Source: a phage
Strand: one strand, 5' to 3'
DNA: 64,000 nt
NCBI GenBank assembly: GCA_029944565.1
Contig: GCA_029944565.1_4115.1
Below, piece by piece: positions 35,212-48,825 of this stretch. Position 1 is the stretch's first letter; every line of letters starts with the position of its first letter. A program made the position numbers and the translations under genes. The notes beneath the pieces were generated by a model. It was not told the DNA's origin, made no database searches, and saw nothing but the letters and a program-made list of their open reading frames with translations.

Positions 35212-35402
35212 TAACATTTTATTCGTAATACCCCTTTATCGAAGTCGCTAAGGTTACCCGCCCTTTAGCCCCCTACGCATTTTGCCATAGTCCAATCCCT
35301 TTTATTTCAAAAAAGTCAAGGGATTACCTATGCATTTTTTTAACGCATAATTTTAAAAACGCCTTGACTTTTTTCTGAATCAGTACTAGATCCCTTTACG
35401 CA
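35212..35402. promoter_or_regulatory. repeat-rich upstream region of the family B array
   Basis: four ACGCAT-type repeats (ctacgcatttt, ctatgcatttt, aacgcataatttt, ttacgcattaat), inverted repeat TATGC-N11-GCATA, 8-bp stem aatccctt/aagggatt. Confidence 0.4.
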
Positions 35403-35612
35403 TTAATCCTTCGTTACGCTAACGATTATCTGTGTATCCCCGTAGTCCTGCCATACTTCCACGCCATCGGTCGCCCTGGTTAGTCGTGCTGTCATCTGCT
35501 TAATGGTCTTAGGCTTTAGTGGAACCTGTTGCAGTACTGTACGCATAGCATCATTGACGTTATCATGTACGCCTGCAATAGTGCCTAGGACGCTGTATAC
35601 TGTATAGAACAT
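35403..35612 (-). CDS. hypothetical protein
   Basis: 69-aa ORF; SD aggag 8 nt upstream. Confidence 0.55.
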   Translation of the reverse strand: MFYTVYSVLGTIAGVHDNVNDAMRTVLQQVPLKPKTIKQMTARLTRATDGVEVWQDYGDTQIIVSVTKD

Positions 35613-35624
35613 ATGTATGTACTC

Positions 35625-35657
35625 CTGATATAGTTAAGGCCGCTACAAGGCGGCCTA
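35625..35657 (-). terminator. candidate terminator hairpin
   Basis: ggccgc-tacaag-gcggcc stem-loop followed by U-rich tract on minus strand. Confidence 0.35.
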
Positions 35658-35680
35658 TGATGTTTGGTGATGTGTAACGC

Positions 35681-36082
35681 TTACAGTCCTAAGATAGTGC
35701 GTGCTTCGTTACGTTCCGTACACAGCTGCATGATGTGAGCAAGTAAGTCCTTGCTAATGTATCCGGTGTTCATAGCTTCACGAATAGATACATCATAAGC
35801 ACCGAACCCCGTGCGAACGATACGCACATCATTCAGGTTAGTATTATAGATACCGCCGAGATCAACGGCTTCGAATACTACATCAACAGAATATTCATTG
35901 TTGCCATCGTGGAAGTTTTCCAGTGCAATAGTATTGGATACCGCCCAACGTTTGCAGTTTCCAATGATGCGGCACTGTTCCGGTTGGATAGTACCATTAC
36001 TTACAGCGTACTCCAGTGCATCTTTACCAAAAGTCCGAGCCAGTACTAAAACGTCAGCGAAGGAATTGATTGAGAAGGTCAT
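35681..36082 (-). CDS. hypothetical protein
   Basis: start MTFSINSF with SD aaggag; track ORF extended through leader hairpin. Confidence 0.6.
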   Translation of the reverse strand: MTFSINSFADVLVLARTFGKDALEYAVSNGTIQPEQCRIIGNCKRWAVSNTIALENFHDGNNEYSVDVVFEAVDLGGIYNTNLNDVRIVRTGFGAYDVSIREAMNTGYISKDLLAHIMQLCTERNEARTILGL

Positions 36083-36103
36083 GATAAAACTCCTTAATTT
36101 AGG

Positions 36104-36165
36104 AGGGAGAACCATTTCCCCCTCTCTATGTAAAACATTATACTTGATTCTAAGTACTATGCAAG
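36104..36165 (-). promoter_or_regulatory. early promoter (TTGCAT-16-TATAAT) plus 5' leader hairpin
   Basis: plus-strand cattatac at 36136-36143 and atgcaa at 36159-36164; GC hairpin gggagaaccatttccccctc between TSS and SD. Confidence 0.65.
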
Positions 36166-36171
36166 TACTTT

Positions 36172-36504
36172 TTACATTTTAATACCTGGATTCAGGTAGC
36201 GGTGAGATCCATATTCTGGATCGGTTTCGGTCCAGTACTGTAAATCGATAGTACCTTTCGCGTTAATCTTGTCTACCAGCTTATTCATCTTAGCGTATAC
36301 TACGTCAGCATCGATGCGTTTAAAGCCAGTAGCTTTAGTGAAGTAGTAGTGATTTGCTTCACTATCATTAAGGATATACCGAGCACCGTTTGCAGTCTGT
36401 GCGATAATGATTGAGTATTCTACTTCCCGATCCAGACCGTCGATGAATACAGATGAAACATTGGTACGGATGAAAGCTTTAACGATAGCGATTGAAGTAC
36501 TCAT
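36172..36504 (-). CDS. hypothetical protein
   Basis: 110-aa ORF; SD aggag. Confidence 0.6.
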   Translation of the reverse strand: MSTSIAIVKAFIRTNVSSVFIDGLDREVEYSIIIAQTANGARYILNDSEANHYYFTKATGFKRIDADVVYAKMNKLVDKINAKGTIDLQYWTETDPEYGSHRYLNPGIKM

Positions 36505-36557
36505 TTTGAATCTCCTAACTTTGTGGGCCGTCGCACCATTGCCGCCCTACGAGATAC

Positions 36558-36586
36558 ATTATCGCAGTACTGATATACTTTGTCAA
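36558..36586 (-). promoter_or_regulatory. early promoter (TTGACA-17-GATAAT)
   Basis: hexamers on minus strand upstream of 36172..36504. Confidence 0.6.
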
Positions 36587-36612
36587 TACTTTTTTTATTA
36601 ATAGTTTTAGTT

Positions 36613-36620
36613 CCACCAGC
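36613..36620. other. Chi octamer (CCACCAGC, complement of GCTGGTGG)
   Basis: exact 8-mer in intergenic DNA. Confidence 0.5.
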
Positions 36621-36652
36621 AGATAGTTACTCACCGTTATTAACTATATATT

Positions 36653-36732
36653 TTAGATACACCTATGCACCCTGTGGGCTAGTTTTTGTCTATGCGTATA
36701 TAGTACTAAAGGAGCGGACCGAAGTCAACTCC
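36653..36732 (-). promoter_or_regulatory. conserved intergenic element, copy 1 (promoter TTGACT-17-TACTAT inside UUCG hairpin, then conserved core)
   Basis: core ...tgcaccctgtgggct... at 36653-36681; hairpin ggagcggac-cgaa-gtcaactcc at 36711-36732. Confidence 0.5.
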
Positions 36733-36751
36733 TTTTTTTATTCTTTTTTTG

Positions 36752-36952
36752 TTAGATGATTCTCCAATCATCAACGATCATGGTAAGATACCGAACCAGT
36801 GATTCGAGTGATTCGTGTTCTCGATAGTCTGCCGCTCCACCAGCGGTACAAGTACAGCCGATTAAGCCGTTTTGTAGTTCCTGGATCTTTACGTCGATCT
36901 GGTTGGCTTTAGCTTCTTTCAGTACTTCAACCAGGGCGATAGCGATAGACAT
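36752..36952 (-). CDS. hypothetical protein
   Basis: 66-aa ORF; SD ggag. Confidence 0.55.
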   Translation of the reverse strand: MSIAIALVEVLKEAKANQIDVKIQELQNGLIGCTCTAGGAADYREHESLESLVRYLTMIVDDWRII

Positions 36953-36974
36953 AATGTTTTACTCCAAACTATTG

Positions 36975-37035
36975 GCGGGAGAACTATTCCCCCGCTCTAT
37001 GTAAAACATTATACATTACTGGTTAGTACTGTCAA
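36975..37035 (-). promoter_or_regulatory. early promoter (TTGACA-16-TATAAT) plus leader hairpin
   Basis: perfect hexamers; hairpin gcgggagaactattcccccgc. Confidence 0.7.
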
Positions 37036-37041
37036 ATAGTT

Positions 37042-37299
37042 TTATGAAATATCTTCGATGTAGTCGGCCCATTTCATTTTTTCAGTACTGTCAATGGCTA
37101 CCGGATTATTTGGATCAAACCATTCACCATTCCCGCAATACATACCCACGCCAGCGGTAGTATATCCATCCTGGGCCGTATTCCATGACATTGCACGATA
37201 GATATGGCCTTTAATTGGTGTTAGTACTGGTAACGTTTTATGGTCTTCTACGTAGGCCATAGCTTGAGGATTTACCCGATATTGTGTGAACTGTTCCAT
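37042..37299 (-). CDS. hypothetical protein
   Basis: 85-aa ORF. Confidence 0.55.
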   Translation of the reverse strand: MEQFTQYRVNPQAMAYVEDHKTLPVLTPIKGHIYRAMSWNTAQDGYTTAGVGMYCGNGEWFDPNNPVAIDSTEKMKWADYIEDIS

Positions 37300-37327
37300 T
37301 ATGTTTCCCCTTGTAGTTAGTAAAGTT

Positions 37328-37356
37328 ATTACATCAGTACTATCAAGCTATGTCAA
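37328..37356 (-). promoter_or_regulatory. early promoter (TTGACA-17-TGTAAT)
   Basis: hexamers on minus strand. Confidence 0.45.
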
Positions 37357-37375
37357 TAGTACTGAAATAAAACTT

Positions 37376-37600
37376 TTAGATTAGATTATTGATGCCGTTG
37401 ATGGTAGACTCGCTTTCTTCTTTCTCCCATTGGCGGTAGTACTTCCATGCTTCATGATATGTGGCGATTAGTTCATCTTTTTGATCCTGAGTACATGCCA
37501 GTACTGAATCACGGTGAGCGGTGTTATAGATAGAATCGAATGATTTCTTCTCTTCTGCCAGGTTAGCTACTTCCCGCATCAGTTCATCAAAGTTAGCCAT
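37376..37600 (-). CDS. hypothetical protein
   Basis: 74-aa ORF; SD aaggag. Confidence 0.6.
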   Translation of the reverse strand: MANFDELMREVANLAEEKKSFDSIYNTAHRDSVLACTQDQKDELIATYHEAWKYYRQWEKEESESTINGINNLI

Positions 37601-37618
37601 TTTATTACTCCTTTTAGT

Positions 37619-37675
37619 GGGGGAGGATATCTCCCCCTATGCAAAACATTATACTTTGTTTTAGTTATTATGCAA
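37619..37675 (-). promoter_or_regulatory. early promoter (TTGCAT-16-TATAAT) plus leader hairpin
   Basis: hairpin gggggag-gatat-ctccccc. Confidence 0.65.
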
Positions 37676-37931
37676 GTACTTTTTTCATATAAAGATTATA
37701 TTCTACACCGCCGTAACCTTCTACGATGATATGTTTTGCGTTATCACGTTTGCACATAGTGAAACCGTTGTTGATGTGTTCTGCATTTTCCAGGGCGACA
37801 TCACCGATAGCGGCACATACGGCACTAATAACAGTATTCCGCAAAGTACTGGTATCATTAGCGGTCATAGTAGTTTGCAGTACTACGTTGTCGTATACGT
37901 GTGCATTGATAGTGATTTCGATAGTGTTCAT
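37668..37931 (-). CDS. hypothetical protein
   Basis: 87-aa ORF; SD aggag. Confidence 0.6.
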   Translation of the reverse strand: MNTIEITINAHVYDNVVLQTTMTANDTSTLRNTVISAVCAAIGDVALENAEHINNGFTMCKRDNAKHIIVEGYGGVEYNLYMKKVLA

Positions 37932-37949
37932 GGTGTATCTCCTGGACTG

Positions 37950-38010
37950 GCGGGAGAACTATTCCCCCGCTCTATGTAAAACATTATACGTTAATCTAAC
38001 TACAATGCAA
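37950..38010 (-). promoter_or_regulatory. early promoter (TTGCAT-16-TATAAT) plus leader hairpin
   Basis: same architecture as 36975..37035. Confidence 0.65.
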
Positions 38011-38017
38011 GTACTTT

Positions 38018-38209
38018 TTAAATTTTATTTCCGATATAGTCCGGTCTATTCTTTTCGGTCATACGCTTTGCTAATGTTTGCATATGGCTTATTGCGTTTA
38101 ATGTGTCTTCCTCCAGGGATGAATCAACATAATCAGGATCATTCTTCACCTTGCAATGATTATGATAGCGTAGTACTGCCAGTACTTTTTTAACTTCTTC
38201 TACTGTCAT
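38018..38209 (-). CDS. hypothetical protein
   Basis: 63-aa ORF, ATGA-coupled to upstream gene. Confidence 0.5.
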   Translation of the reverse strand: MTVEEVKKVLAVLRYHNHCKVKNDPDYVDSSLEEDTLNAISHMQTLAKRMTEKNRPDYIGNKI

Positions 38210-38478
38210 AATAAGTACCCCACTTCGTTAGCTTTCAGGTTAGTATCAATCATCAGTGGATTTTTGTAGTTCACAAAACGATTAGTTTTCTCGATAGCGA
38301 ATCCCATATAATCCAGCTTACTAACAGTACATTCATTCTTAAAAACTTCTTTCGCTGCATCGATGGCTGATTGCATGGATAACCGACCATCTAAATTAAT
38401 GTTTCCAAATGATCCACCAGCAGAAGTAGGATTACCGTTCATATCTTTAATGATCATAGTAGCGGAGTAGCTGGACAT
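38206..38478 (-). CDS. hypothetical protein
   Basis: 90-aa ORF. Confidence 0.6.
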   Translation of the reverse strand: MSSYSATMIIKDMNGNPTSAGGSFGNINLDGRLSMQSAIDAAKEVFKNECTVSKLDYMGFAIEKTNRFVNYKNPLMIDTNLKANEVGYLL

Positions 38479-38500
38479 AATTTTGTTTCCTTTTAGTATC

Positions 38501-38559
38501 GGGGAGAACTATTCTCCCCTTGATGTAAACTATTATACAGTACTGATATACTTTGTCAA
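38501..38559 (-). promoter_or_regulatory. early promoter (TTGACA-16-TATAAT) plus leader hairpin
   Basis: hairpin ggggagaa-ctat-tctcccc. Confidence 0.7.
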
Positions 38560-38565
38560 ATACTT

Positions 38566-38973
38566 TTATTCGCCCATATAGATTAAGTTATCATCGCCTA
38601 CATAGGGATCGCAAACGTTGATTTCTTCGCAGTACTTCGTGAATACATCGCCATAGTGACCTAAACCACGATCCCAAAAACCAGTTCCGTGACCTTCGCG
38701 GGTAAGGAACAGATCATGACCAGCTTGCTCATAACCGTAATCAATAAACATACCGCGAACTACTTCCAGATCATTACCGTGTTTCTCAATGAAGCGAGAA
38801 CATGCAATCACCGCCGCTTGACGTGCTTCATCAGATAACTCATAATCTTCCAGGTAATCGCCGTTATCATTATGTACAGTACTGAATTGCATAGCTTCAA
38901 TGTAAGCTACAACCATTGCAGCATGATTTTTATCGTTAGTGATGTTCCGAGCGAGATTAGTAGTAGTAGACAT
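38566..38973 (-). CDS. hypothetical protein
   Basis: 135-aa ORF. Confidence 0.6.
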   Translation of the reverse strand: MSTTTNLARNITNDKNHAAMVVAYIEAMQFSTVHNDNGDYLEDYELSDEARQAAVIACSRFIEKHGNDLEVVRGMFIDYGYEQAGHDLFLTREGHGTGFWDRGLGHYGDVFTKYCEEINVCDPYVGDDNLIYMGE

Positions 38974-38994
38974 GATTTTATTCCTTATTGTATT

Positions 38995-39053
38995 GGGGAG
39001 AACTATTCTCCCCTTGATGTAAACTATTATACAGTACTGATATACTTTGTCAA
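38995..39053 (-). promoter_or_regulatory. early promoter (TTGACA-16-TATAAT) plus leader hairpin
   Basis: near-identical copy of 38501..38559. Confidence 0.7.
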
Positions 39054-39056
39054 TAC

Positions 39057-39278
39057 TTAATTACGTTTAAAATGATATGTGCCTTTATCATCCTGTACGC
39101 CCCACACTGATTTACCATCAACACCAGTGAAACCGGATTGTAATTCAATATGGAAACCATTATTATCAACTACAAAAACTTTTTTATTTTCATCCCGATA
39201 ACATTGATATTCTGAATCAACATTAAAGGCCGCATCATTCAGAAGATTGGAAGCGTAAATGCAAGTCATTGTAGTCAT
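39057..39278 (-). CDS. hypothetical protein
   Basis: start MTTMTCIYAS; track ORF extended through leader hairpin. Confidence 0.55.
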   Translation of the reverse strand: MTTMTCIYASNLLNDAAFNVDSEYQCYRDENKKVFVVDNNGFHIELQSGFTGVDGKSVWGVQDDKGTYHFKRN

Positions 39279-39301
39279 GATTTTATTCCTTATTCTTTGA
39301 G

Positions 39302-39360
39302 GGAGAACCATTTCCCCCTCTCGATATAAAACATTATACTTGATTCTAAGTACAATGCAA
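39302..39360 (-). promoter_or_regulatory. early promoter (TTGCAT-16-TATAAT) plus leader hairpin
   Basis: hexamers and hairpin gggagaaccatttccccctc. Confidence 0.65.
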
Positions 39361-39402
39361 GTACTTTTTTAAAAATAGTTTTCAGTACTGAATACTTATA
39401 TA

Positions 39403-39487
39403 ATAGATACATTTATGCACCCTGTGGGTCAGTGAGCTATCTCTCAATGAATATATAATAGCAAAGGGACTGACCGAAGTCAATCCC
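39403..39487 (-). promoter_or_regulatory. conserved intergenic element, copy 2 (promoter TTGACT-17-TATTAT inside UUCG hairpin, then conserved core)
   Basis: core at 39403-39432; hairpin gggactgac-cgaa-gtcaatccc at 39465-39487. Confidence 0.5.
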
Positions 39488-39501
39488 TTTTTTAATCTTT
39501 T

Positions 39502-40086
39502 TTATCGTGTTATAGTTACGGCTTTTACATCCCGCTTTTTATAGTACTGATTCCAGATATTGCGGGTTAAACCGTAATCAAGTACTTTAATAAGGCCGTT
39601 GCGATCCTGGCCGATATTCTGTTTTCTGATATCTCTTATCGTTAGTGTTGACAGTGTATCATCAACGTGTTGTAGTGCATCAGCAAAGCGGTGCTGGCGT
39701 TCAATTGCATTACGTTTAATATTGTACTTTAATTCGTTGCACGCGTTAACGTGCTTTACACTGCCTTTGCTTGCAGTACTCAACCGATCCATAACGATAA
39801 ACATATTATCAGGATCGCTTAAATGCATATGCACTTTAGCAAAGTACTGTTTCAATTGAGGGCGGTCATAGTCTAAAAAATTCCATACCTTACATTCAGT
39901 TTCATTTTGTTCTACACCCGCATCACAATTGGCGACCTTAATCACTAACCGATCATTTAAAGCGAAAACTATACGGGAAGATCCCGCCCCGATGATCTCC
40001 AGGCCAGCTAACCGACAAGCTGAAAGGATCTCTTTGTTGGTTTCCATTTCTGACAGTGTACGGATGAATTTAGTATAATTACGCAT
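39502..40086 (-). CDS. protein kinase-like protein (putative)
   Basis: glycine-rich loop IGAGSSRIVF then VIKV; catalytic-loop-like NIGQDRNGLIKVLDYG; start MRNYTKF with SD aaggag. Confidence 0.4.
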   Translation of the reverse strand: MRNYTKFIRTLSEMETNKEILSACRLAGLEIIGAGSSRIVFALNDRLVIKVANCDAGVEQNETECKVWNFLDYDRPQLKQYFAKVHMHLSDPDNMFIVMDRLSTASKGSVKHVNACNELKYNIKRNAIERQHRFADALQHVDDTLSTLTIRDIRKQNIGQDRNGLIKVLDYGLTRNIWNQYYKKRDVKAVTITR

Positions 40087-40114
40087 TGCATGTTCTCCTT
40101 GAGTTAATGAAACT

Positions 40115-40143
40115 ATATTACAGTACTTTACTATCAATTGCAA
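40115..40143 (-). promoter_or_regulatory. early promoter (TTGCAA-17-TAATAT)
   Basis: hexamers on minus strand. Confidence 0.5.
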
Positions 40144-40360
40144 CTACTTTTTTAACATTAACGGCGTGGATCACTTCCTTAGTGTTTTTAGTACTGAATA
40201 CTTTCGCCGCTCCTTGTTCGACCGTGATACGATAGCGACCATTAACATCAACCATATTAATAAAGTCCGGCGTGCTGAATGGTGTTGTTTTACATTTCAG
40301 TACTGTTAACAATTCCACCAGCGATGTAGTTTCTTTGATACGTTTTTCTAAAGTAATCAT
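40118..40360 (-). CDS. hypothetical protein
   Basis: 80-aa ORF. Confidence 0.55.
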   Translation of the reverse strand: MITLEKRIKETTSLVELLTVLKCKTTPFSTPDFINMVDVNGRYRITVEQGAAKVFSTKNTKEVIHAVNVKKVVAIDSKVL

Positions 40361-40389
40361 TTTGTTTTTCCCCGTGTTGGTATGTACAT

Positions 40390-40418
40390 ATAGTACTAAA
40401 ACATTTGAGTACTGTCAA
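40390..40418 (-). promoter_or_regulatory. early promoter (TTGACA-17-TACTAT)
   Basis: ~60-bp block duplicated at 40640-40694. Confidence 0.55.
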
Positions 40419-40637
40419 TTAGATAATTGCATATTTCTTTAAAGATAATGCGTCTTGGGTTGGCTGATACTCAATGCCGTTACCGTTATCTACTTTAACT
40501 AATAAACCTTTGTCAATTAGTTTTTTAATAGTCCTTTGGCCTTGTTGAAAATTGGTAAAATGTGAATCATTACGAAAGGTATAACCGTGCTTAACTGCTT
40601 CATCAATAGTTTTCTTTTCGATTTTAGATAATTTCAT
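40419..40637 (-). CDS. hypothetical protein
   Basis: start MKLSKIEKK; track ORF extended upstream. Confidence 0.55.
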   Translation of the reverse strand: MKLSKIEKKTIDEAVKHGYTFRNDSHFTNFQQGQRTIKKLIDKGLLVKVDNGNGIEYQPTQDALSLKKYAII

Positions 40638-40665
40638 TTTGTTTCTCCCGTGTTGGTATGTGTAC

Positions 40666-40694
40666 ATAATACTAAAACAATTGAGTACTGTCAA
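40666..40694 (-). promoter_or_regulatory. early promoter (TTGACA-17-TATTAT)
   Basis: duplicate of 40390..40418 block. Confidence 0.55.
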
Positions 40695-40945
40695 CGTGAT
40701 ATTAGTTTTATTTTCTTATTATATTGTTGGTGTTCATATAGGTTTATCTTTCCTGTGTTCTCAATTACTATTCTGTTGTTAGTGTCTACATCGATTACAC
40801 GCAGTTTTCCGTTGCTTAACTTCCTTGGTAATAGGTTACCATTAATAAACTCATTAGCAAGCTGTACGGCCTTTGTGATGATTCTCTGTGGTGCTTTATA
40901 GTGTACCCGCAAGATATTATCTTTAGATAGTTGTACCTTAATCAT
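40691..40945 (-). CDS. hypothetical protein
   Basis: 84-aa ORF. Confidence 0.55.
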   Translation of the reverse strand: MIKVQLSKDNILRVHYKAPQRIITKAVQLANEFINGNLLPRKLSNGKLRVIDVDTNNRIVIENTGKINLYEHQQYNKKIKLISR

Positions 40946-40959
40946 TTTAGTTTATCCTA

Positions 40960-40986
40960 TAAAAAAGGCGGGAACTGATCCCGCCG
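40960..40986 (-). terminator. rho-independent terminator
   Basis: hairpin ggcggga-actga-tcccgcc followed by UUUUUU on minus strand. Confidence 0.55.
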
Positions 40987-41007
40987 TGTTGTTAGTACTG
41001 CAAGTTA

Positions 41008-41403
41008 TTAGATAACCTGGCGGCGTTTACTGTATACTGTTACACGATTACCCTTACGGTCGTGTCGGATCTCTTTCTGGTTGCGTACCAGTTCACTTGG
41101 ACGCTTAAGGTTTGCCAGGTGATCCGCGTGAGTCCAAGCGGTATGGTTTGTCTGTACTTTGATATCAGAATCAGCGATAAATTCATCTTGTGCGTTAAGT
41201 ACTGCCGCCAGTAAATCCGCTCGTTTTAGTTCTGCTGCTGTTAGTACTGGCTCCGGTGAATTCACGATATCAGAGATTTCTTTGAACTGTACGGCCCAGC
41301 GTTGACCTTTCGGTGCATCTTTGCCCATGTCTTTAAATGCTGCTCCTTCCTCGCGTGCAACAATACGGGCAGCTTCACGGGTAGCGTAGAATTTAGTAAT
41401 CAT
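41008..41403 (-). CDS. hypothetical protein (paralog of 52725..52991)
   Basis: shared YATREAARIAAR, FKDMG, DRKGNRVTVY; start MITKFYATRE. Confidence 0.6.
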   Translation of the reverse strand: MITKFYATREAARIVAREEGAAFKDMGKDAPKGQRWAVQFKEISDIVNSPEPVLTAAELKRADLLAAVLNAQDEFIADSDIKVQTNHTAWTHADHLANLKRPSELVRNQKEIRHDRKGNRVTVYSKRRQVI

Positions 41404-41447
41404 GGTATACATCCTATTAGTTGAGTTAGTACTACAAGTTAGAGTCT

Positions 41448-41476
41448 ATTATAAAGTACTATCTGGGCAATGTCAA
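41448..41476 (-). promoter_or_regulatory. early promoter (TTGACA-17-TATAAT)
   Basis: perfect hexamers. Confidence 0.65.
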
Positions 41477-41498
41477 ATAGTACTTTAAATGGATTCTA

Positions 41499-41822
41499 TT
41501 ACATGTCTTTCTTACGTTTTACATCGTTGTATCGAACTGTTATTTCTTTGTTAATCTCTTTTTCGATGCGGTGAATAACTTTTTCTTTCGGGTTGAAACC
41601 TATAACGGTTTCTTTAATGATCTCCAAGCCCGTGTATTCGCCTTGTGTGCCGTAACCGTATGTAAAGGTTTCATGTCCCAGGTCTTCCCAACGATCACCA
41701 ATTAACGCAGACACGTAGCAAGAGTGGTAAGTATTGCCGTGTGAATCAGTCCACCGATTAACTTTAATGTCAAAGGAGGTTACAATTTTCAGTTCTACTT
41801 TCTGGGCAAGGATCATAGCCAT
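41499..41822 (-). CDS. hypothetical protein (paralog of 48459..48782)
   Basis: shared RWTDSxGNTYHSC, FTYGY, DVKRKKD; start MAMILAQ. Confidence 0.6.
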   Translation of the reverse strand: MAMILAQKVELKIVTSFDIKVNRWTDSHGNTYHSCYVSALIGDRWEDLGHETFTYGYGTQGEYTGLEIIKETVIGFNPKEKVIHRIEKEINKEITVRYNDVKRKKDM

Positions 41823-41844
41823 TTTTATTTCTCTCTCTTTGTTA

Positions 41845-41907
41845 GGAGGGGAACCGTTTCCCCTCACTTGATGTAAACTATTATACAGTACTAAGATACT
41901 TTGTCAA
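41845..41907 (-). promoter_or_regulatory. early promoter (TTGACA-16-TATAAT) plus leader hairpin
   Basis: hairpin gaggggaaccgtttcccctc. Confidence 0.7.
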
Positions 41908-41910
41908 TAC

Positions 41911-42093
41911 TTATTTTTTGGAAAGTTTACGCATTAATTCTACGCTTTCTTGTGAACGTTTTGCTACCTGGCAAGCTGCATGGACAGTAAACATTTTTGT
42001 ATAGTCTGACGGTTTGCCACCGAACCGAGCGGCACGTTCACGGGCACTTGGAACTAATACGATTTCTTTCTTACAGATAGTGCATTTAGCCAT
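41911..42093 (-). CDS. small Cys-containing hypothetical protein
   Basis: 60-aa ORF MAKCTICKK... Confidence 0.5.
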   Translation of the reverse strand: MAKCTICKKEIVLVPSARERAARFGGKPSDYTKMFTVHAACQVAKRSQESVELMRKLSKK

Positions 42094-42113
42094 TTTTATT
42101 TCTCTCTCTTTGT

Positions 42114-42176
42114 TAGGAGGGGAACCATTCCCCCTCTCGATGTAAACTATTATACAGTACTAAGATACTTTGTCAA
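42114..42176 (-). promoter_or_regulatory. early promoter (TTGACA-16-TATAAT) plus leader hairpin
   Basis: near-identical copy of 41845..41907. Confidence 0.7.
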
Positions 42177-42179
42177 TAC

Positions 42180-42455
42180 TTAATTATTGTAAATGTCGTG
42201 AATAGTGATAAAGTTTTTACGACCGTAAACCTGCAAATCAATATCAATGTAGTGCTTATCTAGTACATCCTCGACGCTTAACGCGGTGTCGTGGATATCT
42301 TCGTAGAATTGAGGATCTACAATCTTGCTTAAGTCATCCGGCGTTAACTCATCGTTAAGCCGTTGAACCGCCTGGATATCTGCTTCACGTTTCCAGTCTT
42401 CCAGGTTAGTAGTCAGTACTTGTTCGATTTCGTTAGCTGTCAGTAGAATCCGCAT
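42180..42455 (-). CDS. hypothetical protein
   Basis: 91-aa acidic ORF. Confidence 0.6.
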   Translation of the reverse strand: MRILLTANEIEQVLTTNLEDWKREADIQAVQRLNDELTPDDLSKIVDPQFYEDIHDTALSVEDVLDKHYIDIDLQVYGRKNFITIHDIYNN

Positions 42456-42488
42456 TTTAATGTTTCCTTATCAGTGGTTGATGTAAGT

Positions 42489-42516
42489 ATTATACTCGTT
42501 TACTTTCTATTGTCAA
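42489..42516 (-). promoter_or_regulatory. early promoter (TTGACA-16-TATAAT)
   Basis: proximal of three tandem promoters. Confidence 0.6.
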
Positions 42517-42604
42517 ACTATTTTATCAGGGGAGGTTTTCTTATGTCTTACTCCTGGACTACTTAACGGGGTTACTTGTTTCGTTCCCCGTCCTGATGTA
42601 AAAT

Positions 42605-42632
42605 ATTATACTTGATTCTAAGTACAATGCAA
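42605..42632 (-). promoter_or_regulatory. early promoter (TTGCAT-16-TATAAT)
   Basis: second tandem promoter; 70-nt leader with hairpin acgggg-N14-ccccgt. Confidence 0.55.
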
Positions 42633-42662
42633 GTACTTTTTAAAAATAGTTTTCAGTACTAG

Positions 42663-42670
42663 CCACCAGC
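42663..42670. other. Chi octamer (CCACCAGC)
   Basis: exact 8-mer next to conserved element. Confidence 0.5.
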
Positions 42671-42675
42671 AAACA

Positions 42676-42755
42676 ATAGATACATTTATGCACCCTGTGG
42701 GCTGATTTGTTTCTATGCGTATATAATAGCAAAGGGACTGACCGGAGTCAATCCC
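42676..42755 (-). promoter_or_regulatory. conserved intergenic element, copy 3 (promoter TTGACT-17-TATTAT inside hairpin, then core)
   Basis: core at 42676-42704; hairpin gggactgac-cgga-gtcaatccc. Confidence 0.5.
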
Positions 42756-42769
42756 TTTTTCAATTATTT

Positions 42770-42919
42770 TTAAACTTGTTTCGGGTTGCGATAGGTGATA
42801 GCGTTCGGGTACATTTGTTTAATGTTATTCCATGCCTGGTTAACATTGTAACCACTTGAGCGAATCAGTTGGTTGCTACCGACACCTTGAAACACTACTT
42901 CGAATAAGAATTCTTTCAT
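42770..42919 (-). CDS. small hypothetical protein (~49 aa)
   Basis: ATGA-coupled to upstream small ORF; below ORF-track cutoff. Confidence 0.35.
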   Translation of the reverse strand: MKEFLFEVVFQGVGSNQLIRSSGYNVNQAWNNIKQMYPNAITYRNPKQV

Positions 42920-43092
42920 GCTTTCACCTCGCTATCTTCTTTACCTTTACGCCAGGACATTACTAATTGTTCGCGTTGCCATAAGTCGAGTGATACAAAA
43001 AGTTTTGCGGTATCACTTTTAGGATACTCGCCATTAGTACCTAACCGATAAAACAGATCTTTCAGTACTGATAATTCTACTTGGATCATTTT
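42916..43092 (-). CDS. small hypothetical protein (~58 aa)
   Basis: ATGA-coupled on both sides. Confidence 0.35.
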   Translation of the reverse strand, partial: KMIQVELSVLKDLFYRLGTNGEYPKSDTAKLFVSLDLWQREQLVMSWRKGKEDSEVKA

Positions 43093-43178
43093 ATTACTCC
43101 TGATTGCGTTAATACTTCTACTATTGCATGAATGATCATAAGTACAGCTAAAACAATAATCATCGGATTCATTTGCAT
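43089..43178 (-). CDS. hydrophobic micro-protein (29 aa, MQMNPMIIVLAVLMIIHAIVEVL...)
   Basis: SD aaggag 8 nt upstream; single predicted TM helix. Confidence 0.35.
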
Positions 43179-43195
43179 AAGCTGTACTCCTTATA

Positions 43196-43408
43196 TTAAT
43201 CTTTCAGCCAATGATCTTGAATGAATTTTTCACAGAATCCCTGTTTCATGGATTCTAACAGGCGTTCGCGGTGAGCGTTGGCAAATTGCTCAGTACTATG
43301 CGTTACGCCAGGCTGATAACGTGATACCCCATCCGGTCCGATGTATTGAACATCCCACGGTTTTTCATTAGTATCAGACCATTTACGAACGATTAGTTGA
43401 CCTTGCAT
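43196..43408 (-). CDS. hypothetical protein
   Basis: 70-aa ORF. Confidence 0.6.
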   Translation of the reverse strand: MQGQLIVRKWSDTNEKPWDVQYIGPDGVSRYQPGVTHSTEQFANAHRERLLESMKQGFCEKFIQDHWLKD

Positions 43409-43425
43409 TTTTCTTTCCTCTCAGT

Positions 43426-43485
43426 GGGGAGAATCATTTCTCCCCTTCATGTAACTTATTATACAGTACTAGATTACATTGTCAA
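43426..43485 (-). promoter_or_regulatory. early promoter (TTGACA-16-TATAAT) plus leader hairpin
   Basis: hairpin ggggagaa-tcat-ttctcccc. Confidence 0.7.
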
Positions 43486-43491
43486 TAGTTT

Positions 43492-43815
43492 TTATTCACC
43501 TTGTTTGAATTTAGTTTTCTCCATTGATTCCATGATTGCAACCAATACGCCGTGGATCTCGCTTAACGTGGAATCACTAAAAGCATTAATGAATAGTCGA
43601 TCATTCTCACGAATATTTTTAATGTACTTTTCAGCAGTAGTTGCGAATTCATTCAACGGTAGATCAAATGCTTTATCCCATGATGGATGGCGTAATTGTA
43701 ACAGTACTGGATTATCACGATCACCAGGGGAAAACGTACCAGTGATGAAACATACGCCCGGAATACTTTCGAACTGGCAACGGACTTCCTTTGTGATAGT
43801 AGTATGAATGTACAT
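43492..43815 (-). CDS. hypothetical protein
   Basis: 107-aa ORF. Confidence 0.6.
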   Translation of the reverse strand: MYIHTTITKEVRCQFESIPGVCFITGTFSPGDRDNPVLLQLRHPSWDKAFDLPLNEFATTAEKYIKNIRENDRLFINAFSDSTLSEIHGVLVAIMESMEKTKFKQGE

Positions 43816-43842
43816 TTATTGTTATCCTCTATTAAATTAATA

Positions 43843-44031
43843 TTACAGTTTATGAATCAATTCTTTATCTAAGCGATAGCGTACATTATTAATAGTAACG
43901 GCATTGTTTTTAATGCTACGCTGTACAGGTCCACCAGCAATAACAAACGTTGCTTTATTACCCCGAACAATGATAGCACTTCCAGGATTACCGAAATCAT
44001 CTTGTACTAAAATACTTGATAAGTTTTCCAT
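43843..44031 (-). CDS. hypothetical protein
   Basis: 62-aa ORF. Confidence 0.55.
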   Translation of the reverse strand: MENLSSILVQDDFGNPGSAIIVRGNKATFVIAGGPVQRSIKNNAVTINNVRYRLDKELIHKL

Positions 44032-44050
44032 TTTTTATTTCCTCTTAGTA

Positions 44051-44107
44051 GGGGAAGATGTTTCCCCTTGATGTAAGTATTATAACAGTACTGAAAACTA
44101 AATGCAA
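44051..44107 (-). promoter_or_regulatory. early promoter (TTGCAT-17-TATAAT) plus leader hairpin
   Basis: hairpin ggggaa-gatgt-ttcccc. Confidence 0.6.
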
Positions 44108-44110
44108 GTA

Positions 44111-44467
44111 CTATGATAAAATCATGATAGGATATTCACTATCGATCAGTACCTCGAATCCGAAACCTTCGTACCATTCTTTAAGATTGAAGGCGTTATC
44201 TTCTCCTGTATCGCATTCTAAAATGATACAATCTGAATCATCGGCGGCATCAATAAAGGCATTCATTAATTCGTTACCTTCACCATTGCCCCGACTATCA
44301 GGATCAACATAAAGAGAATCAATAAACGCTACACGGTCATAATCAAGATCCGGTGCAATGATTCCACGTTTAACAAACCAGTACTGCAATTGTGCTACTT
44401 TGCCCTGTACTTGATAGCCAGTGATCTCGCCATTGTCAGTAGTACGCGTGATATGTTGTATTCCCAT
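44111..44467 (-). CDS. GNAT-like N-acetyltransferase (tentative)
   Basis: LYVDPDSRGNGEGNELMNAFIDAA resembles GNAT motif A; by eye only. Confidence 0.3.
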   Translation of the reverse strand: MGIQHITRTTDNGEITGYQVQGKVAQLQYWFVKRGIIAPDLDYDRVAFIDSLYVDPDSRGNGEGNELMNAFIDAADDSDCIILECDTGEDNAFNLKEWYEGFGFEVLIDSEYPIMILS

Positions 44468-44496
44468 GATTTCAATCCTCAGTTAAGATATAAAAT

Positions 44497-44524
44497 ATTA
44501 TACACTATCTTTCAGTACTGTCAA
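44497..44524 (-). promoter_or_regulatory. early promoter (TTGACA-16-TATAAT)
   Basis: perfect hexamers, no leader hairpin. Confidence 0.65.
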
Positions 44525-44530
44525 TACTTT

Positions 44531-44788
44531 TTATCTCATAGATCTATGCCAACAATTACGCGGGGGACGTTTAAAAGTACTATCATGATCCTCCTGGCAA
44601 GTTATGCAGTACTTACATCCCTTAACGGCCTGGCGTCGATTCTCAGGGATTATATCGCCGCAGTCGAGGCAATGTATCAGTGATTCTATTTGTGCGTTAA
44701 TTTGCTTTCTAGCGTGGTTAACGGCGGCCTGAATCACTGCGTTAATCTCGTCTTGTTCGGCCCCATCTTTCGCGAATCCTACAGCCAT
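44531..44788 (-). CDS. TraR/DksA-family C4 zinc-finger protein (putative)
   Basis: CLDCG-N17-CKYCITC spacing (CxxC-N17-CxxC). Confidence 0.5.
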   Translation of the reverse strand: MAVGFAKDGAEQDEINAVIQAAVNHARKQINAQIESLIHCLDCGDIIPENRRQAVKGCKYCITCQEDHDSTFKRPPRNCWHRSMR

Positions 44789-45039
44789 TATTTTAACCTC
44801 ATTATAAAAATACTATAGTACTGTAATGCGACAATAATATTACTTGTTCTTACTTTTTCCAATCCACATGATACCACATATTCATCCCCATATGTGCGAA
44901 ACGATACACCATGAAAATTTTTATACACTTGCACTACTAATCATAACCTTTCGTCTAACCAACTGCATAGAATTATACTACTTTACGCAAATTGATCAAG
45001 TATTGATCAGATCATTTTTTGATCAATATTATACAGTTA

Positions 45040-45115
45040 CATTTGTGCACCCTATGGGTTAGTGACGTTCTCGTCTTGATGTAAGTATTATGCCAGTACT
45101 TGATGATATTGTCAA
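45040..45115 (-). promoter_or_regulatory. orphan promoter (TTGACA-17-CATAAT) with conserved transcribed core, no ORF downstream
   Basis: hexamers at 45087-45115; transcript begins acttacatcaagacgagaacgtcactaacccatagggtgc. Confidence 0.5.
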
Positions 45116-45119
45116 TAGT

Positions 45120-45317
45120 TTATTTTAATTTTTTTCTGTCATTGATTAATGCTTTCAGTACTATACTAATGATTTGCAATGATTCATCAATGACTATAAA
45201 ATTATTCTCTTTCATTAGATGATAGTTACCATTGATTGTATATTCTAAGGAGTACTGTTTACGTTTAATTTTTGATAATGTTTCTATTTGTTTTTGTACT
45301 GATTTCATGCTAATCAT
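45120..45317 (-). CDS. hypothetical protein
   Basis: 65-aa ORF. Confidence 0.5.
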   Translation of the reverse strand: MISMKSVQKQIETLSKIKRKQYSLEYTINGNYHLMKENNFIVIDESLQIISIVLKALINDRKKLK

Positions 45318-45393
45318 TGTTAAACGTCCTGTAACGCATTCTAACGAGATAAACGGTTTAGTACTGGCATTGTATAGGGTAATGAATTAAAGC

Positions 45394-45401
45394 CCACCAG
45401 C
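45394..45401. other. Chi octamer (CCACCAGC)
   Basis: exact 8-mer within hairpin agcccaccagcg... Confidence 0.45.
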
Positions 45402-45422
45402 GTTAACCAGTGGGCTATAATC

Positions 45423-45557
45423 TTACATCTTGCGGATAATCTTAACAGTATCTTTCACCGATTTACCGTCTTGCTGGCATTGCTCGATCATTGCGTATTG
45501 TTCTGCTGTAAGATCCTCGCCAGTTTTTGCCAGTACTGCGTCGATGAATGAATCCAG
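45423..45557 (-). CDS. small hypothetical protein (~44 aa)
   Basis: downstream of promoter 45602..45629; below ORF-track cutoff. Confidence 0.4.
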   Translation of the reverse strand: MDSFIDAVLAKTGEDLTAEQYAMIEQCQQDGKSVKDTVKIIRKM

Positions 45558-45601
45558 TGCGATCATTTTGTTTCTCTCTTAGGTTAAGTTAACTACTGTT
45601 T

Positions 45602-45629
45602 ATAAAACTTATTATACAGTACTATCAAA
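45602..45629 (-). promoter_or_regulatory. early promoter (TTGACA-16-TATAAT)
   Basis: perfect hexamers. Confidence 0.65.
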
Positions 45630-45665
45630 CGTTGTCAATATCTTTAATAGTACTGGTAATATATT

Positions 45666-45845
45666 TTAGCGGTAATCGTCGTATGCTTTATTCACCTGGC
45701 GAATGTAACTTTCAAAGGCTTCGTCTACCGTTTCATACTCCCGAACATAATCACCATAGGAAACTACATACATACCTTTTTGATCTTCAAACGACATGAT
45801 GATAGAATCCAGGCCGATGATTTCAGTTTTTGCGATGATAGCCAT
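45666..45845 (-). CDS. hypothetical protein
   Basis: start MAIIAKTEI with SD aaggaa; track ORF extends upstream. Confidence 0.55.
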   Translation of the reverse strand: MAIIAKTEIIGLDSIIMSFEDQKGMYVVSYGDYVREYETVDEAFESYIRQVNKAYDDYR

Positions 45846-45879
45846 TTTTAATTCCTTAGTAGTGTAGTTGATAAAAGTT

Positions 45880-45908
45880 ATTATGCCAGTACTATCAATC
45901 AGTGTCAA
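45880..45908 (-). promoter_or_regulatory. early promoter (TTGACA-17-CATAAT)
   Basis: same subtype as 45087..45115 and 48826..48854. Confidence 0.55.
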
Positions 45909-45928
45909 TAGTACTGTGATAATATTTT

Positions 45929-46141
45929 TTAGTTAATAATAGTCAGTGTAAAATTGTAATCCCCTGCCTGGTATAGTACTTTATCGCCGAACGTTCCAAC
46001 ACGTTTCATATTGCAATAGATACCCATAACACTTTTTACATCTTTGATATTCCGAACGCCAGTAATATCCTTGTTTAAATGATCGTGATCAGAAAATAAA
46101 ACTTGTTTTGCATTTTTCAGTACAGTGCAGATATTAGCCAT
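45929..46141 (-). CDS. hypothetical protein
   Basis: 70-aa ORF. Confidence 0.6.
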   Translation of the reverse strand: MANICTVLKNAKQVLFSDHDHLNKDITGVRNIKDVKSVMGIYCNMKRVGTFGDKVLYQAGDYNFTLTIIN

Positions 46142-46161
46142 TTTGTTTTCTCTCTGTTAGT

Positions 46162-46221
46162 GGGGAGAATCATTTCTCCCCTTCATGTAACTTATTATAC
46201 AGTACTATAATCTATTGTCAA
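46162..46221 (-). promoter_or_regulatory. early promoter (TTGACA-16-TATAAT) plus leader hairpin
   Basis: hairpin ggggagaa-tcat-ttctcccc. Confidence 0.7.
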
Positions 46222-46235
46222 ACTATTTTTTTATA

Positions 46236-46577
46236 TTATTCGAAATCTTCTGGACCGGACTGATAATCATCTTCACCGTATGCACTTTCTAACTTCTCGC
46301 CAGTGTGATCATCAGTTAGTGAATCATCCTCATAATTCACGTCTACGCCTACAATGTAAAACTGGCTATCGTCTGGATCATTGAAATTAATTTTCTGAAT
46401 GTTTACAATAACTGTATTGATGCCCAGGACACAGCCATCAGCCGTTACAAAGTACTGATAGTTTTCACAACCGCCTGAATTGAAACCGTAATTGATTTCG
46501 GCCCGACCATCATTTAAACGCAGTGCCTGGGCGATGATTTCGTTTTCAAAGTTAGATTGAGCAATTGAGATAGTCAT
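46236..46577 (-). CDS. hypothetical acidic protein
   Basis: 113-aa ORF, Asp/Glu-rich C-terminus. Confidence 0.6.
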   Translation of the reverse strand: MTISIAQSNFENEIIAQALRLNDGRAEINYGFNSGGCENYQYFVTADGCVLGINTVIVNIQKINFNDPDDSQFYIVGVDVNYEDDSLTDDHTGEKLESAYGEDDYQSGPEDFE

Positions 46578-46597
46578 GATTCGTTTCCTTATTACTA

Positions 46598-46656
46598 GGG
46601 GAAACCGTTTCCCCTTTCGATGTAAAACATTATACGCTTATTGAGATAGTTTGCAA
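46598..46656 (-). promoter_or_regulatory. early promoter (TTGCAA-16-TATAAT) plus leader hairpin
   Basis: hairpin ggggaaa-ccg-tttcccc. Confidence 0.65.
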
Positions 46657-46709
46657 GTACTTTTTATCAAATACTTTAAAATAGTTTTCAGTACTCAAAC
46701 ATTATACAA

Positions 46710-46792
46710 TAGATACACTCCTGCACCCTGTGGGCTAGTGAGCTATCTCTCAATGATTATATAATAACAAAATGGCTGACCGAAGTCAACCA
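46710..46792 (-). promoter_or_regulatory. conserved intergenic element, copy 4 (promoter TTGACT-17-TATTAT inside UUCG hairpin, then core)
   Basis: core at 46710-46755; hairpin tggctgac-cgaa-gtcaacca. Confidence 0.5.
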
Positions 46793-46802
46793 CTTTTTTC
46801 AT

Positions 46803-46937
46803 TTATTTTTTAGCTTTAAGTACTGCGGCCTTTCGTGTCATGCCTTGCTTGATGTATTCCTGTACTTTCGCTTTACGTGCTTTAGCTTTATCTGCTTTAG
46901 TTTTAGGAGTACTGTAAACTATACCGTTAGGATTCAT
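46803..46937 (-). CDS. small basic hypothetical protein (44 aa)
   Basis: Lys/Ala-rich; follows stop of upstream micro-ORF directly. Confidence 0.35.
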   Translation of the reverse strand: MNPNGIVYSTPKTKADKAKARKAKVQEYIKQGMTRKAAVLKAKK

Positions 46938-47027
46938 TTAAATCACCATAAAGAATAGATAGGTTACTAACAACGCCGCGATCAATGCACCGACCAGGGC
47001 CGAACTGTAATAAGCTAAGGATCTCAT
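46938..47027 (-). CDS. hydrophobic micro-protein (29 aa, MRSLAYYSSALVGALIAALLV...)
   Basis: ATGA overlap with 47024..47176; single predicted TM helix. Confidence 0.35.
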   Translation of the reverse strand: MRSLAYYSSALVGALIAALLVTYLFFMVI

Positions 47028-47176
47028 TTTTTAGCCTGAAAATAATGTTTAATTTGTGCGGCGGTCAGTGCACAATTACGCAGGAAGTTTTCTGTATAAC
47101 TGCGGCGAGTATTAAAAGAGAATTGACCTTTACCGTTACCGATAGTTACATCCATCCGAGCGTTGTATTGTTTCAT
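47024..47176 (-). CDS. small hypothetical protein (50 aa)
   Basis: start MKQYNARMDV with SD aggag; track ORF extended through leader hairpin. Confidence 0.5.
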   Translation of the reverse strand: MKQYNARMDVTIGNGKGQFSFNTRRSYTENFLRNCALTAAQIKHYFQAKK

Positions 47177-47194
47177 TTTGTATCTCCTGTTATC

Positions 47195-47254
47195 GGGGAG
47201 AATCATTTCTCCCCTTCATGTAAAACATTATACAGTACTAAAAACTAATTGCAA
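47195..47254 (-). promoter_or_regulatory. early promoter (TTGCAA-16-TATAAT) plus leader hairpin
   Basis: hairpin ggggagaa-tcat-ttctcccc. Confidence 0.65.
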
Positions 47255-47257
47255 GTA

Positions 47258-47500
47258 TTATTTTAAACTTTGTGCGACTAATTTCGCACGGTCAATCATA
47301 TACTGCCATTTTTGGATCTCTTCTGGCAGAAAACGATATTCACCAATAACAATAGTGATACACTTTTCAGCTTGGTCAATGTATGTAGTATCAATCTCGA
47401 CTTGAACGGGTACACGTTCGCCGTATTCAGTCCCTGGGATAATGCAATCATTATCATAAGTTACAGTAGTAGTAGTGTCTTTGATTAAAATTGTTTCCAT
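47258..47500 (-). CDS. hypothetical protein
   Basis: 80-aa ORF. Confidence 0.6.
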   Translation of the reverse strand: METILIKDTTTTVTYDNDCIIPGTEYGERVPVQVEIDTTYIDQAEKCITIVIGEYRFLPEEIQKWQYMIDRAKLVAQSLK

Positions 47501-47523
47501 TATACTTTCCTCGTTAGGTGTAA

Positions 47524-47579
47524 GGGGAACGTTTTCCCCTTCATGTAAAACATTATACAGTACTGAAAACTAATTGCAA
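47524..47579 (-). promoter_or_regulatory. early promoter (TTGCAA-16-TATAAT) plus leader hairpin
   Basis: hairpin ggggaa-cgtt-ttcccc. Confidence 0.65.
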
Positions 47580-47779
47580 GTACTTTCCGAAAGTAAATGC
47601 TCATACGCTGCATTAACTACATTTTCAATAACCGACTGTACAGAAAGATCCCCCACGTCCTGGCTATAGTAGAAATTGCTTACAGTGGTGTCATCGTATG
47701 CAAATACTTTACCAGGTACTGCATCAATCACATACATATTAACCTTTAAGATGTCGATCTTATCCTGTACAGTAAGCAT
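47570..47779 (-). CDS. hypothetical protein
   Basis: 69-aa ORF. Confidence 0.5.
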   Translation of the reverse strand: MLTVQDKIDILKVNMYVIDAVPGKVFAYDDTTVSNFYYSQDVGDLSVQSVIENVVNAAYEHLLSESTCN

Positions 47780-47784
47780 ATTAA

Positions 47785-48057: not shown

Positions 48058-48108
48058 GGTATAATCCCCAATATAAGCGGCCTAAATCGACCGCTAACGA
48101 TGTTTTGA

Positions 48109-48378: not shown

Positions 48379-48458
48379 TTTACTATCCTCTTAAGTTGAT
48401 TTAATTTCTTTCCCCTATGCAGACACTGTATCAAAGTATCTGCATAAAGTAAAGCTAA

Positions 48459-48782: not shown

Positions 48783-48825
48783 TTTAGTATTCCTTAAATT
48801 AATATGTGTCGTCTTGATAAAATCT

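Follow-up and report, generated by a model that had tools for sequence, protein, structure and literature searches.

Previous studies showed that the gp0.7 kinase of phage T7 (T7K) is hyperpromiscuous and highly active, phosphorylating most of the E. coli proteome and disarming several defence systems, and homologues of it were reported in the jumbo phages Munch and G17 (PMC13645617, 2026). These jumbo-phage homologues lack the C-terminal shut-off/DNA-binding domain of the Autographiviridae members (PMC13645617). In the jumbo phage Sharanji, WNN14432.1 was described as a T7K homologue and WNN14351.1 as "another protein kinase, function unknown" (PMC11895373, 2025). Here, we analysed a 64,000-nucleotide stretch of phage DNA (contig GCA_029944565.1_4115.1, hereafter the window), in which a minus-strand gene at 39502-40086 encodes the orthologue of WNN14351.1 (Sharanji gp063), a predicted mini-kinase of 194 amino acids (aa). 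We read this protein as a constitutively open, single-domain mini protein kinase that would be made immediately after DNA entry and would probably phosphorylate host proteins, and we give this reading a probability of roughly 0.55. We hold a narrower prediction to be very probable, namely that the protein has a kinase fold and acts as an ATP-dependent phosphotransferase.

An earlier note, made from the letters of the window alone, had proposed a phage-encoded, divergent Ser/Thr kinase at this position, and both the open reading frame (ORF) and its phage origin were confirmed. The 3 kb around the gene are 88-97.5% identical to Asteriusvirus Escherichia jumbo phages (PBECO4, 121Q, G17, phAPEC6, and Sharanji), whose genomes are about 350 kb, and the window is accordingly that of an Asteriusvirus jumbo coliphage. 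The kinase-like nature of the product is already on record: orthologues in Turkey3, Turkey5, ph0011, fEgEco12, Munch, SE_PL, Muenster, and fENko-Kae01 carry (putative) protein kinase names in GenBank, the UniProt name of the PBECO4 orthologue (L7TKF0) is likewise that of a kinase, and the Sharanji paper has one sentence to this effect (PMC11895373). The present analysis adds a confident fold model and the conservation of the catalytic residues across a very large family with the short form as its norm. It also sets this family clearly apart from that of T7K and places the gene in an early terminal-repeat context.

A phmmer search of PDB sequences with the single protein retrieved MKK4 (3aln) at E 0.013. 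In this alignment, which we judged convincing, the segment I-RDIRKQNIGQDRNGLIKVLDYG is paired with a stretch of MKK4, and I-R-D-I-R-K-Q-N falls on HRDIKPSN. A profile made from a 46-sequence family alignment (A2), drawn from the relatives recovered by profile search, matched 741 PDB chains at E≤1, the best being again MKK4, at E 1.9e-6. The 60 matches listed were all eukaryotic-like protein kinases, aligned in the correct register from αC to beyond the DFG motif. Judged from these alignments, the motif similarity to kinases is more than chance. The NCBIfam scan of the single sequence returned only PknB_PASTA, at E 0.047, and no family assignment. We also considered the defence kinase PD-T4-6 (PADLOC) and rejected it, as its matches were weak and partial, confined to the generic catalytic core (at best E 1.2e-4, residues 84-177); the gene under study sits in a lytic phage rather than in a host defence island.

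Residue conservation was counted in 209 relatives of at most 300 aa. The residues for Mg-ATP binding and phosphotransfer, namely the glycine-rich loop (G-loop), the K50-E64 pair, D152, N157, and D170, are all conserved at the sequence level (Table 1). K50, E64, and D170 are present in 100% of the relatives and the catalytic Asp D152 in 99%; N157 is kept in the jumbo-phage clade and is found in 18% of the wider family, most distant members of which have S, H, T, or Q there. The Gly that follows D170 (G172) is likewise at 100%, and the position between them is Y in 80% and F in 14%. The G-loop is highly conserved as well (G35 97%, S36 97%, R38 100%, and V40 88%). R38 occupies the third-Gly position of GxGxxGxV, which makes the loop a GxGSSRxV variant rather than a canonical one. 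WNK kinases place their catalytic Lys at the G-loop position equivalent to R38, which we take as a lead only. The start of αC carries further hallmarks, G57 and Q60 in all relatives and N61 in 98%. The His and Arg of the HRD motif are not conserved in the family, and the catalytic loop reads xxDxxxxN, with positions 151 and 154 variable. Two motifs named in the earlier note were found as described, the glycine-rich loop IGAGSSRIVF at residues 32-41 and the VIKV lysine, K50, at residues 48-51. Its third, the catalytic-loop-like NIGQDRNGLIKVLDYG, is present at residues 157-172 but needs a corrected assignment: it runs from N157, the last residue of the catalytic loop, to D170-Y-G172, and the catalytic Asp D152 lies upstream of it.

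AlphaFold2 with the 46-sequence alignment produced a model with a predicted local distance difference test score (pLDDT) of 95.5 and a predicted template modelling score (pTM) of 0.91; with only 11 close homologues the pLDDT was 48, and a usable model needed the 46 sequences. The model is bilobal, with a five-stranded N-lobe sheet plus αC joined by a hinge to a helical C-lobe core, in which the catalytic loop lies, and a Foldseek search of the PDB agrees with a kinase fold. After two N-terminal helices (4-12 and 17-26) come β1, the G-loop, and β2 (30-42, with strands at 30-34 and 38-42), the β3 strand with K50 (47-52), a long αC with E64 (55-73), and β5 (96-100) leading into the hinge. The C-lobe consists of αD (108-120), αE (130-145), the catalytic loop D152-N157, two short strands, and D170-Y-G172. 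Only 24 residues follow D170, and neither the model nor the sequence contains an activation segment, an APE motif, or αF-αI. What the model shows is thus a trimmed kinase fold, made of an N-lobe, αD, αE, a catalytic loop, a DFG-type Mg site, and one final helix. Taken together, the PDB profile matches and the confident model bear out the divergent kinase fold, and since such a fold is predicted and the catalytic Lys and Asp are conserved, the kinase-fold reading stands.

The shortness of the protein is shared by its relatives, which have a median length of 220 aa and a median of 14 residues beyond the Mg-binding Asp. As the short tail is common to the family, the missing αF-αI are a family trait and not a truncation. 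A split kinase whose C-lobe is encoded by an adjoining gene was considered and rejected, because the neighbours encode small proteins of unknown function that show no likeness to kinases, and all family members stop at the same point.

A kinase fold could also serve another polymer or reaction, as in an ArkI-type RNA/tRNA kinase, in AMPylation, or in other nucleotidyl transfer. TkArkI is one of the atypical small kinases with which the protein was compared; however, the similarity to ArkI is no better than that to dozens of protein kinases, no nucleic-acid-binding features are seen, and the conserved catalytic Asp argues for phosphotransfer to a hydroxyl. We consider such a role very unlikely.

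By its profile match, the protein is a member of PHROG 4301, a family annotated as "unknown function". The match is full length (E 4e-42, residues 3-188), and all 46 aligned relatives match the same PHROG. Orthologues are present in 54 phage records. Identity is 92-100% in about 33 records of Asteriusvirus and related Salmonella phages and 36-39% in the distant Rak2-like phages RaK2, K64-1, Muenster, Munch, 7t3, and Kaldavass; named examples besides Sharanji gp063 and PBECO4 L7TKF0 are G17_00012 (QBO61508.1), RaK2 ORF356, and Munch gp046. In phage CMSTMSU (MH494197.1, 116446-117023), an unannotated orthologue was matched as two pieces at 76% identity; it may be disrupted, in which case the gene would be dispensable in that phage, or the break may be a sequencing artefact. 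Compared with the Sharanji and G17 orthologues, the gene has a pN/pS of 0.08, which indicates purifying selection. Given this ratio and the spread of its orthologues, we conclude that it is a real gene under selection.

Beyond these phages the family is very large. An exhaustive profile search found 2,086 representatives (clusters at 50% identity) at E≤1e-3 and 252 at E≤1e-10, and a word-indexed profile search found 916 clusters at E≤1e-5. Of the 120 listed from these 916, nearly every one is unnamed or "hypothetical", and some lie on contigs 100-350 kb long. The 46 aligned relatives match no Pfam family at threshold, and no solved structure of a relative appeared among the PDB matches. The genomic contexts of two sampled relatives are phage-like, with NAD-salvage genes in one and a T4-type RNA ligase and a DNA ligase in the other. 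On the Logan contig ERR4450742, a distant member at 3479-4132 lies a few kb from genes for an NAPRTase, a phosphoribosyltransferase/PRPP-synthase-like protein, and a nucleoside deoxyribosyltransferase; these are NAD and nucleotide salvage genes of the kind that phages use against NAD-depleting defence, in what is a single observation.

Several metagenomic relatives (P0021, P0022, P0028, P0030, P0032, and others) carry two to four complete mini-kinase modules in tandem in one polypeptide. The extra length of the long relatives consists of copies of this same module, and a Pfam scan of them found nothing besides weak YrbL and AceK kinase-like matches in one protein. K50, E64, D152, and D170 are kept in each module of the tandem polyproteins. 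The arrangement suggests multi-kinase polyproteins or cooperation between modules, with gene-calling fusions as another possible origin. In three further relatives (P0207, P0254, and BFVD A0A6J5LUL6), the mini-kinase module is fused to a GNAT acetyltransferase domain, which might hint at the class of substrate.

These fusions bear on a second alternative, in which the protein is a small-molecule or nucleotide kinase resembling aminoglycoside phosphotransferases (APH) and other antibiotic phosphotransferases, and its substrate is a metabolite, a signalling nucleotide, or an antibiotic-like compound instead of a protein. In addition to the GNAT fusions, APH enzymes among the structural neighbours and the missing protein-docking parts speak for it; at the sequence level, the Pfam and NCBIfam scans gave no family match to the atypical small kinases, APH(2'') included. 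We regard this alternative as unlikely.

We then compared the protein with T7K. A Foldseek search of BFVD returned many small uncharacterised phage proteins together with T7K-family kinases (E 5e-6 to 3e-5, TMq 0.50-0.55). When the family alignment was compared by hhalign with an alignment of 17 T7K relatives (A3), the two matched at E 1.7e-4 with a probability of 49%, and the register is correct: the G-loops coincide, K50 pairs with K93, D152 with D195, N157 with N200, and D170 with D213 of the T7K DPV. The T7K kinase-domain query ended at residue 245; together with the pairing of D170 and D213, this indicates that the kinase part of T7K is similarly short. Conversely, PHROG 2828, the T7K family, gave no match to the protein at E≤1, and the PHROG 4301-family hidden Markov model scored 0.7 bits against T7K. 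From these comparisons, the two are remote homologues in separate sequence families.

The possibility that the gene is the jumbo-phage T7K homologue itself was ruled out, since that homologue is Sharanji gp144 (WNN14432.1, L086:22183-22857, 224 aa) and its orthologues, which lie outside the window. In hhalign comparisons, gp144 matches the T7K family with 98.4% probability and the PHROG 4301 family with 17%; its DP-type motif is ITDPLS, with about 19 residues left before the C-terminus. Neither a T7K-like ORF nor a further PHROG 4301 member is present in the 64 kb examined. As gp063 and gp144 belong to different families, Asteriusviruses carry two different mini-kinases.

The severely shortened C-lobe, without αF, is what might be expected of a catalytically dead pseudokinase, or of a scaffold that binds ATP and works through its contact with a host protein. 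However, a pseudokinase has usually lost one or more of K, D, and D, whereas the catalytic residues are kept in 99-100% of the relatives here and recur in each module of the tandem polyproteins, and T7K, which is similarly short in the hhalign register, is reported to be highly active (PMC13645617). A catalytically dead protein thus appears highly improbable to us.

The context of the gene argues for immediate-early expression, as judged by promoter consensus and position. The program-made ORF list places its start at TTG 40143; the ATG at 40086 is the better start, because AAGGAG lies 8 nt upstream of it, the preceding gene stops only at 40118, and the orthologues are all 194 aa long and start with MRNY. 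The kinase is probably the second gene of a two-gene unit that consists of a promoter, an 80-aa gene, the kinase gene, and a hairpin. The 80-aa gene has no Pfam or PHROG match; its homologue Munch gp045 (E 2e-7) also adjoins the Munch kinase gene on the upstream side, and it is the only partner gene in common with Munch and has no counterpart in RaK2. The promoter belongs to a 32-nt repeat (40387-40418), of which a near-identical copy is found at 40663-40694. The hairpin, a probable terminator, is followed by GCTATTATAT and not by a clean T run, and it also carries a promoter-like TTGACT-17-TATTAT for the next gene. A near-identical 38-nt cassette (AAAGGGATTGACTTCGGTCAGTCCCTTT plus GCTATTATAT) occurs three times on the minus strand, with its hairpins at 39463-39490, 42731-42758, and 46769-46796. 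In each, a -35-like TTGACT lies inside the stem and loop and a -10-like TATTAT follows; the cassette resembles a module that joins terminator and promoter functions between early transcription units.

On a larger scale, the gene lies within a putative immediate-early region marked by 11 perfect sigma-70 promoters; these fall within about 9 kb of one strand, an unusually strong and uniform set, and no perfect TTGACA-16/17-TATAAT match occurs on the plus strand of the window. In the related phage CBB, a region of short genes with RpoD promoters that reaches into the terminal repeat was read as an early host-take-over region (PMC5259590). The part of the window that holds the gene matches the direct terminal repeat (DTR) of G17, where adding 35285 to a G17 coordinate in the left copy gives the window coordinate; in G17, the right copy begins at about position 350185 of 370817. 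By homology to G17, the gene would lie 4.2-4.8 kb from the genome end and be present in two copies in each virion DNA. It occurs twice in DTR-resolved records, and annotated "direct terminal repeat" features underlie the match in vB_Ec-M-J, fENko-Kae01, and Muenster.

Table 1. Coordinates of the kinase gene, its functional residues, and its surroundings in the window
Feature	Position	Strand	Comment
194-aa mini-kinase coding sequence	39502..40086	-	ATG 40086-40084, stop 39504-39502
Ribosome-binding site AAGGAG, 8 nt 5' of the ATG	40095..40100	-	Direct sequence reading
Glycine-rich loop, residues 33-40 (G-A-G-S-S-R-I-V)	39967..39990	-	Between model strands 30-34 and 38-42
K50, β3 (VAIK-type) ATP-binding Lys	39937..39939	-	100% of 209 relatives
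E64, αC Glu, partner of K50	39895..39897	-	100% of 209 relatives
Catalytic loop D152-I-R-K-Q-N157	39616..39633	-	Aligned with (HR)DIKPSN of MKK4
D170-Y-G172, DFG (Mg-binding) equivalent	39571..39579	-	Aligned with DFG of MKK4, MST, and PknB
Short C-terminal tail, residues 173-194, one helix (175-182)	39505..39570	-	Model secondary structure
12-pair hairpin, 12 nt after the kinase stop	39463..39490	-	Probable terminator; G17 annotates a terminator at the same place
80-aa gene directly upstream, probably co-transcribed	40118..40360	-	Homologous to Munch gp045
Sigma-70-type promoter TTGACA-17-TACTAT	40390..40418	-	Probably drives the 80-aa gene and the kinase gene
11 perfect sigma-70 promoters (TTGACA-16/17-TATAAT) around the kinase gene	37008..46221	-	Putative immediate-early region
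Region matching the 20.6-kb direct terminal repeat of G17	35286..55918		Inferred by homology to G17, whose ends were resolved

Based on these results, we propose the following course of events. The terminal-repeat early region, the sigma-70 promoter, and the terminator-like hairpin together suggest that the host RNA polymerase would transcribe the gene as soon as the DNA enters. Lacking an activation segment and the αF-αI docking lobe, the kinase would be unswitchable and is likely broadly specific; with no switching by activation-loop phosphorylation, it would be constitutively active and poorly selective, by analogy with T7K. It may then phosphorylate host (perhaps also phage) proteins in transcription, translation, or defence systems, and in this way contribute to take-over of the cell or leave its immunity disarmed, again by analogy with T7K.

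Several points weigh against this proposal. Against the single sequence, Pfam Pkinase (PF00069) reaches E 0.0013 and 18.6 bits, below its cut-off of 31.7, and a weak Pkinase match was seen in only 6 of the 46 relatives. In the HRDxKxxN loop, the Lys is not conserved: the residue at 154 varies, and 69% of the relatives have a basic one at 155; together with the replacement of the Asn at D+5 in distant relatives, this means that the chemistry may differ from that of canonical Ser/Thr kinases. The parts that normally bind protein substrates are absent, and among the best structural neighbours there are SAICAR synthase and kinases that do not act on proteins. The timing of expression is read from promoter consensus only. 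The same phages already have a T7K-like kinase, and the two kinases need not share a job. Finally, we found no experimental work on the PHROG 4301 family in the literature, in which no activity, substrate, or phenotype is reported for any member.

A more far-reaching version of the proposal can be put forward only tentatively, and we lean against it as a whole. It holds that PHROG 4301 is a second, independent, and very large mini-kinase family (>2,000 clusters), active with a core of about 165 residues that has neither αF nor an activation segment; that its members phosphorylate the host proteome broadly, like T7K, and so switch off defence or host functions; that the G-loop Arg, G57, and Q60 compensate for the C-lobe; and that tandem modules cooperate. 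If it were true, the Rak2-group jumbo phages would deploy two unrelated mini-kinases, the PHROG 4301 one being delivered from both genome ends.

The smaller proposal of a constitutively open mini-kinase has consequences of its own. If active, the protein would be among the smallest working kinase folds and would give phages a second phosphorylation route for rewiring host proteins. Phages able to grow on E. coli K-12, Sharanji among them, would make its deletion and phosphoproteomics straightforward. Even if the gene is only a routine accessory gene, a "hypothetical protein" and a PHROG of "unknown function" gain a supported fold assignment. Following the T7K work, we see it as a good experimental lead and not as a surprise.

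Other features of the window were recorded as well. Two genes upstream of the kinase gene, an 84-aa gene (40691-40945, minus strand) encodes a ParE-like toxin domain (Pfam PF24732, E 6e-11, above threshold; PHROG 1525). Its RaK2 counterpart, ORF354, is 68% identical, and it might be an orphan toxin or a decoy. The first 26.5 kb of the window (1-26.5 kb) are packed with minus-strand ORFs of 150-220 aa, and paralogue arrays at 9636-20367 on the same strand comprise one set of seven related ORFs and a second set of five, with lengths of about 120-200 aa. On the plus strand, three tandem paralogues of about 400 aa lie at 60184-63827.

Compared with known systems, the protein aligns with eukaryotic-like Ser/Thr/Tyr kinases (MKK4 3aln, MST/STK3-4, and PknB 1mru) in sequence and structure over the N-lobe, the K-E pair, αD-αE, the D...N of the catalytic loop, and DFG. 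It differs from them in the size of the kinase domain, about 165 residues against about 260, and in having no activation segment, APE motif, αF, or αG-αI. In canonical kinases, αF anchors the regulatory and catalytic spines. The atypical small protein-kinase-like (PKL) kinases, Rio1/Rio2, Bud32/PRPK, APH(2''), and TkArkI, are longer, with 216-300 residues in the matched chains, and they keep C-lobe helices after the Mg-binding Asp. T7K and its relatives, including JSS1_004 and the jumbo-phage homologues, are likewise phage-encoded early genes with a short kinase domain. The protein differs from them in its DYG, which stands where T7K has DPV (D213, P214, and V215 are invariant in T7K relatives), in its G-loop (GxGSSR versus GNGHFS), and in being a kinase core of 194 aa with no T7K-type C-terminal shut-off/DNA-binding domain. 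The closest likeness is to its own PHROG 4301 relatives, which share its length and motifs and, in Rak2-like jumbo phages, its early or terminal-repeat location.
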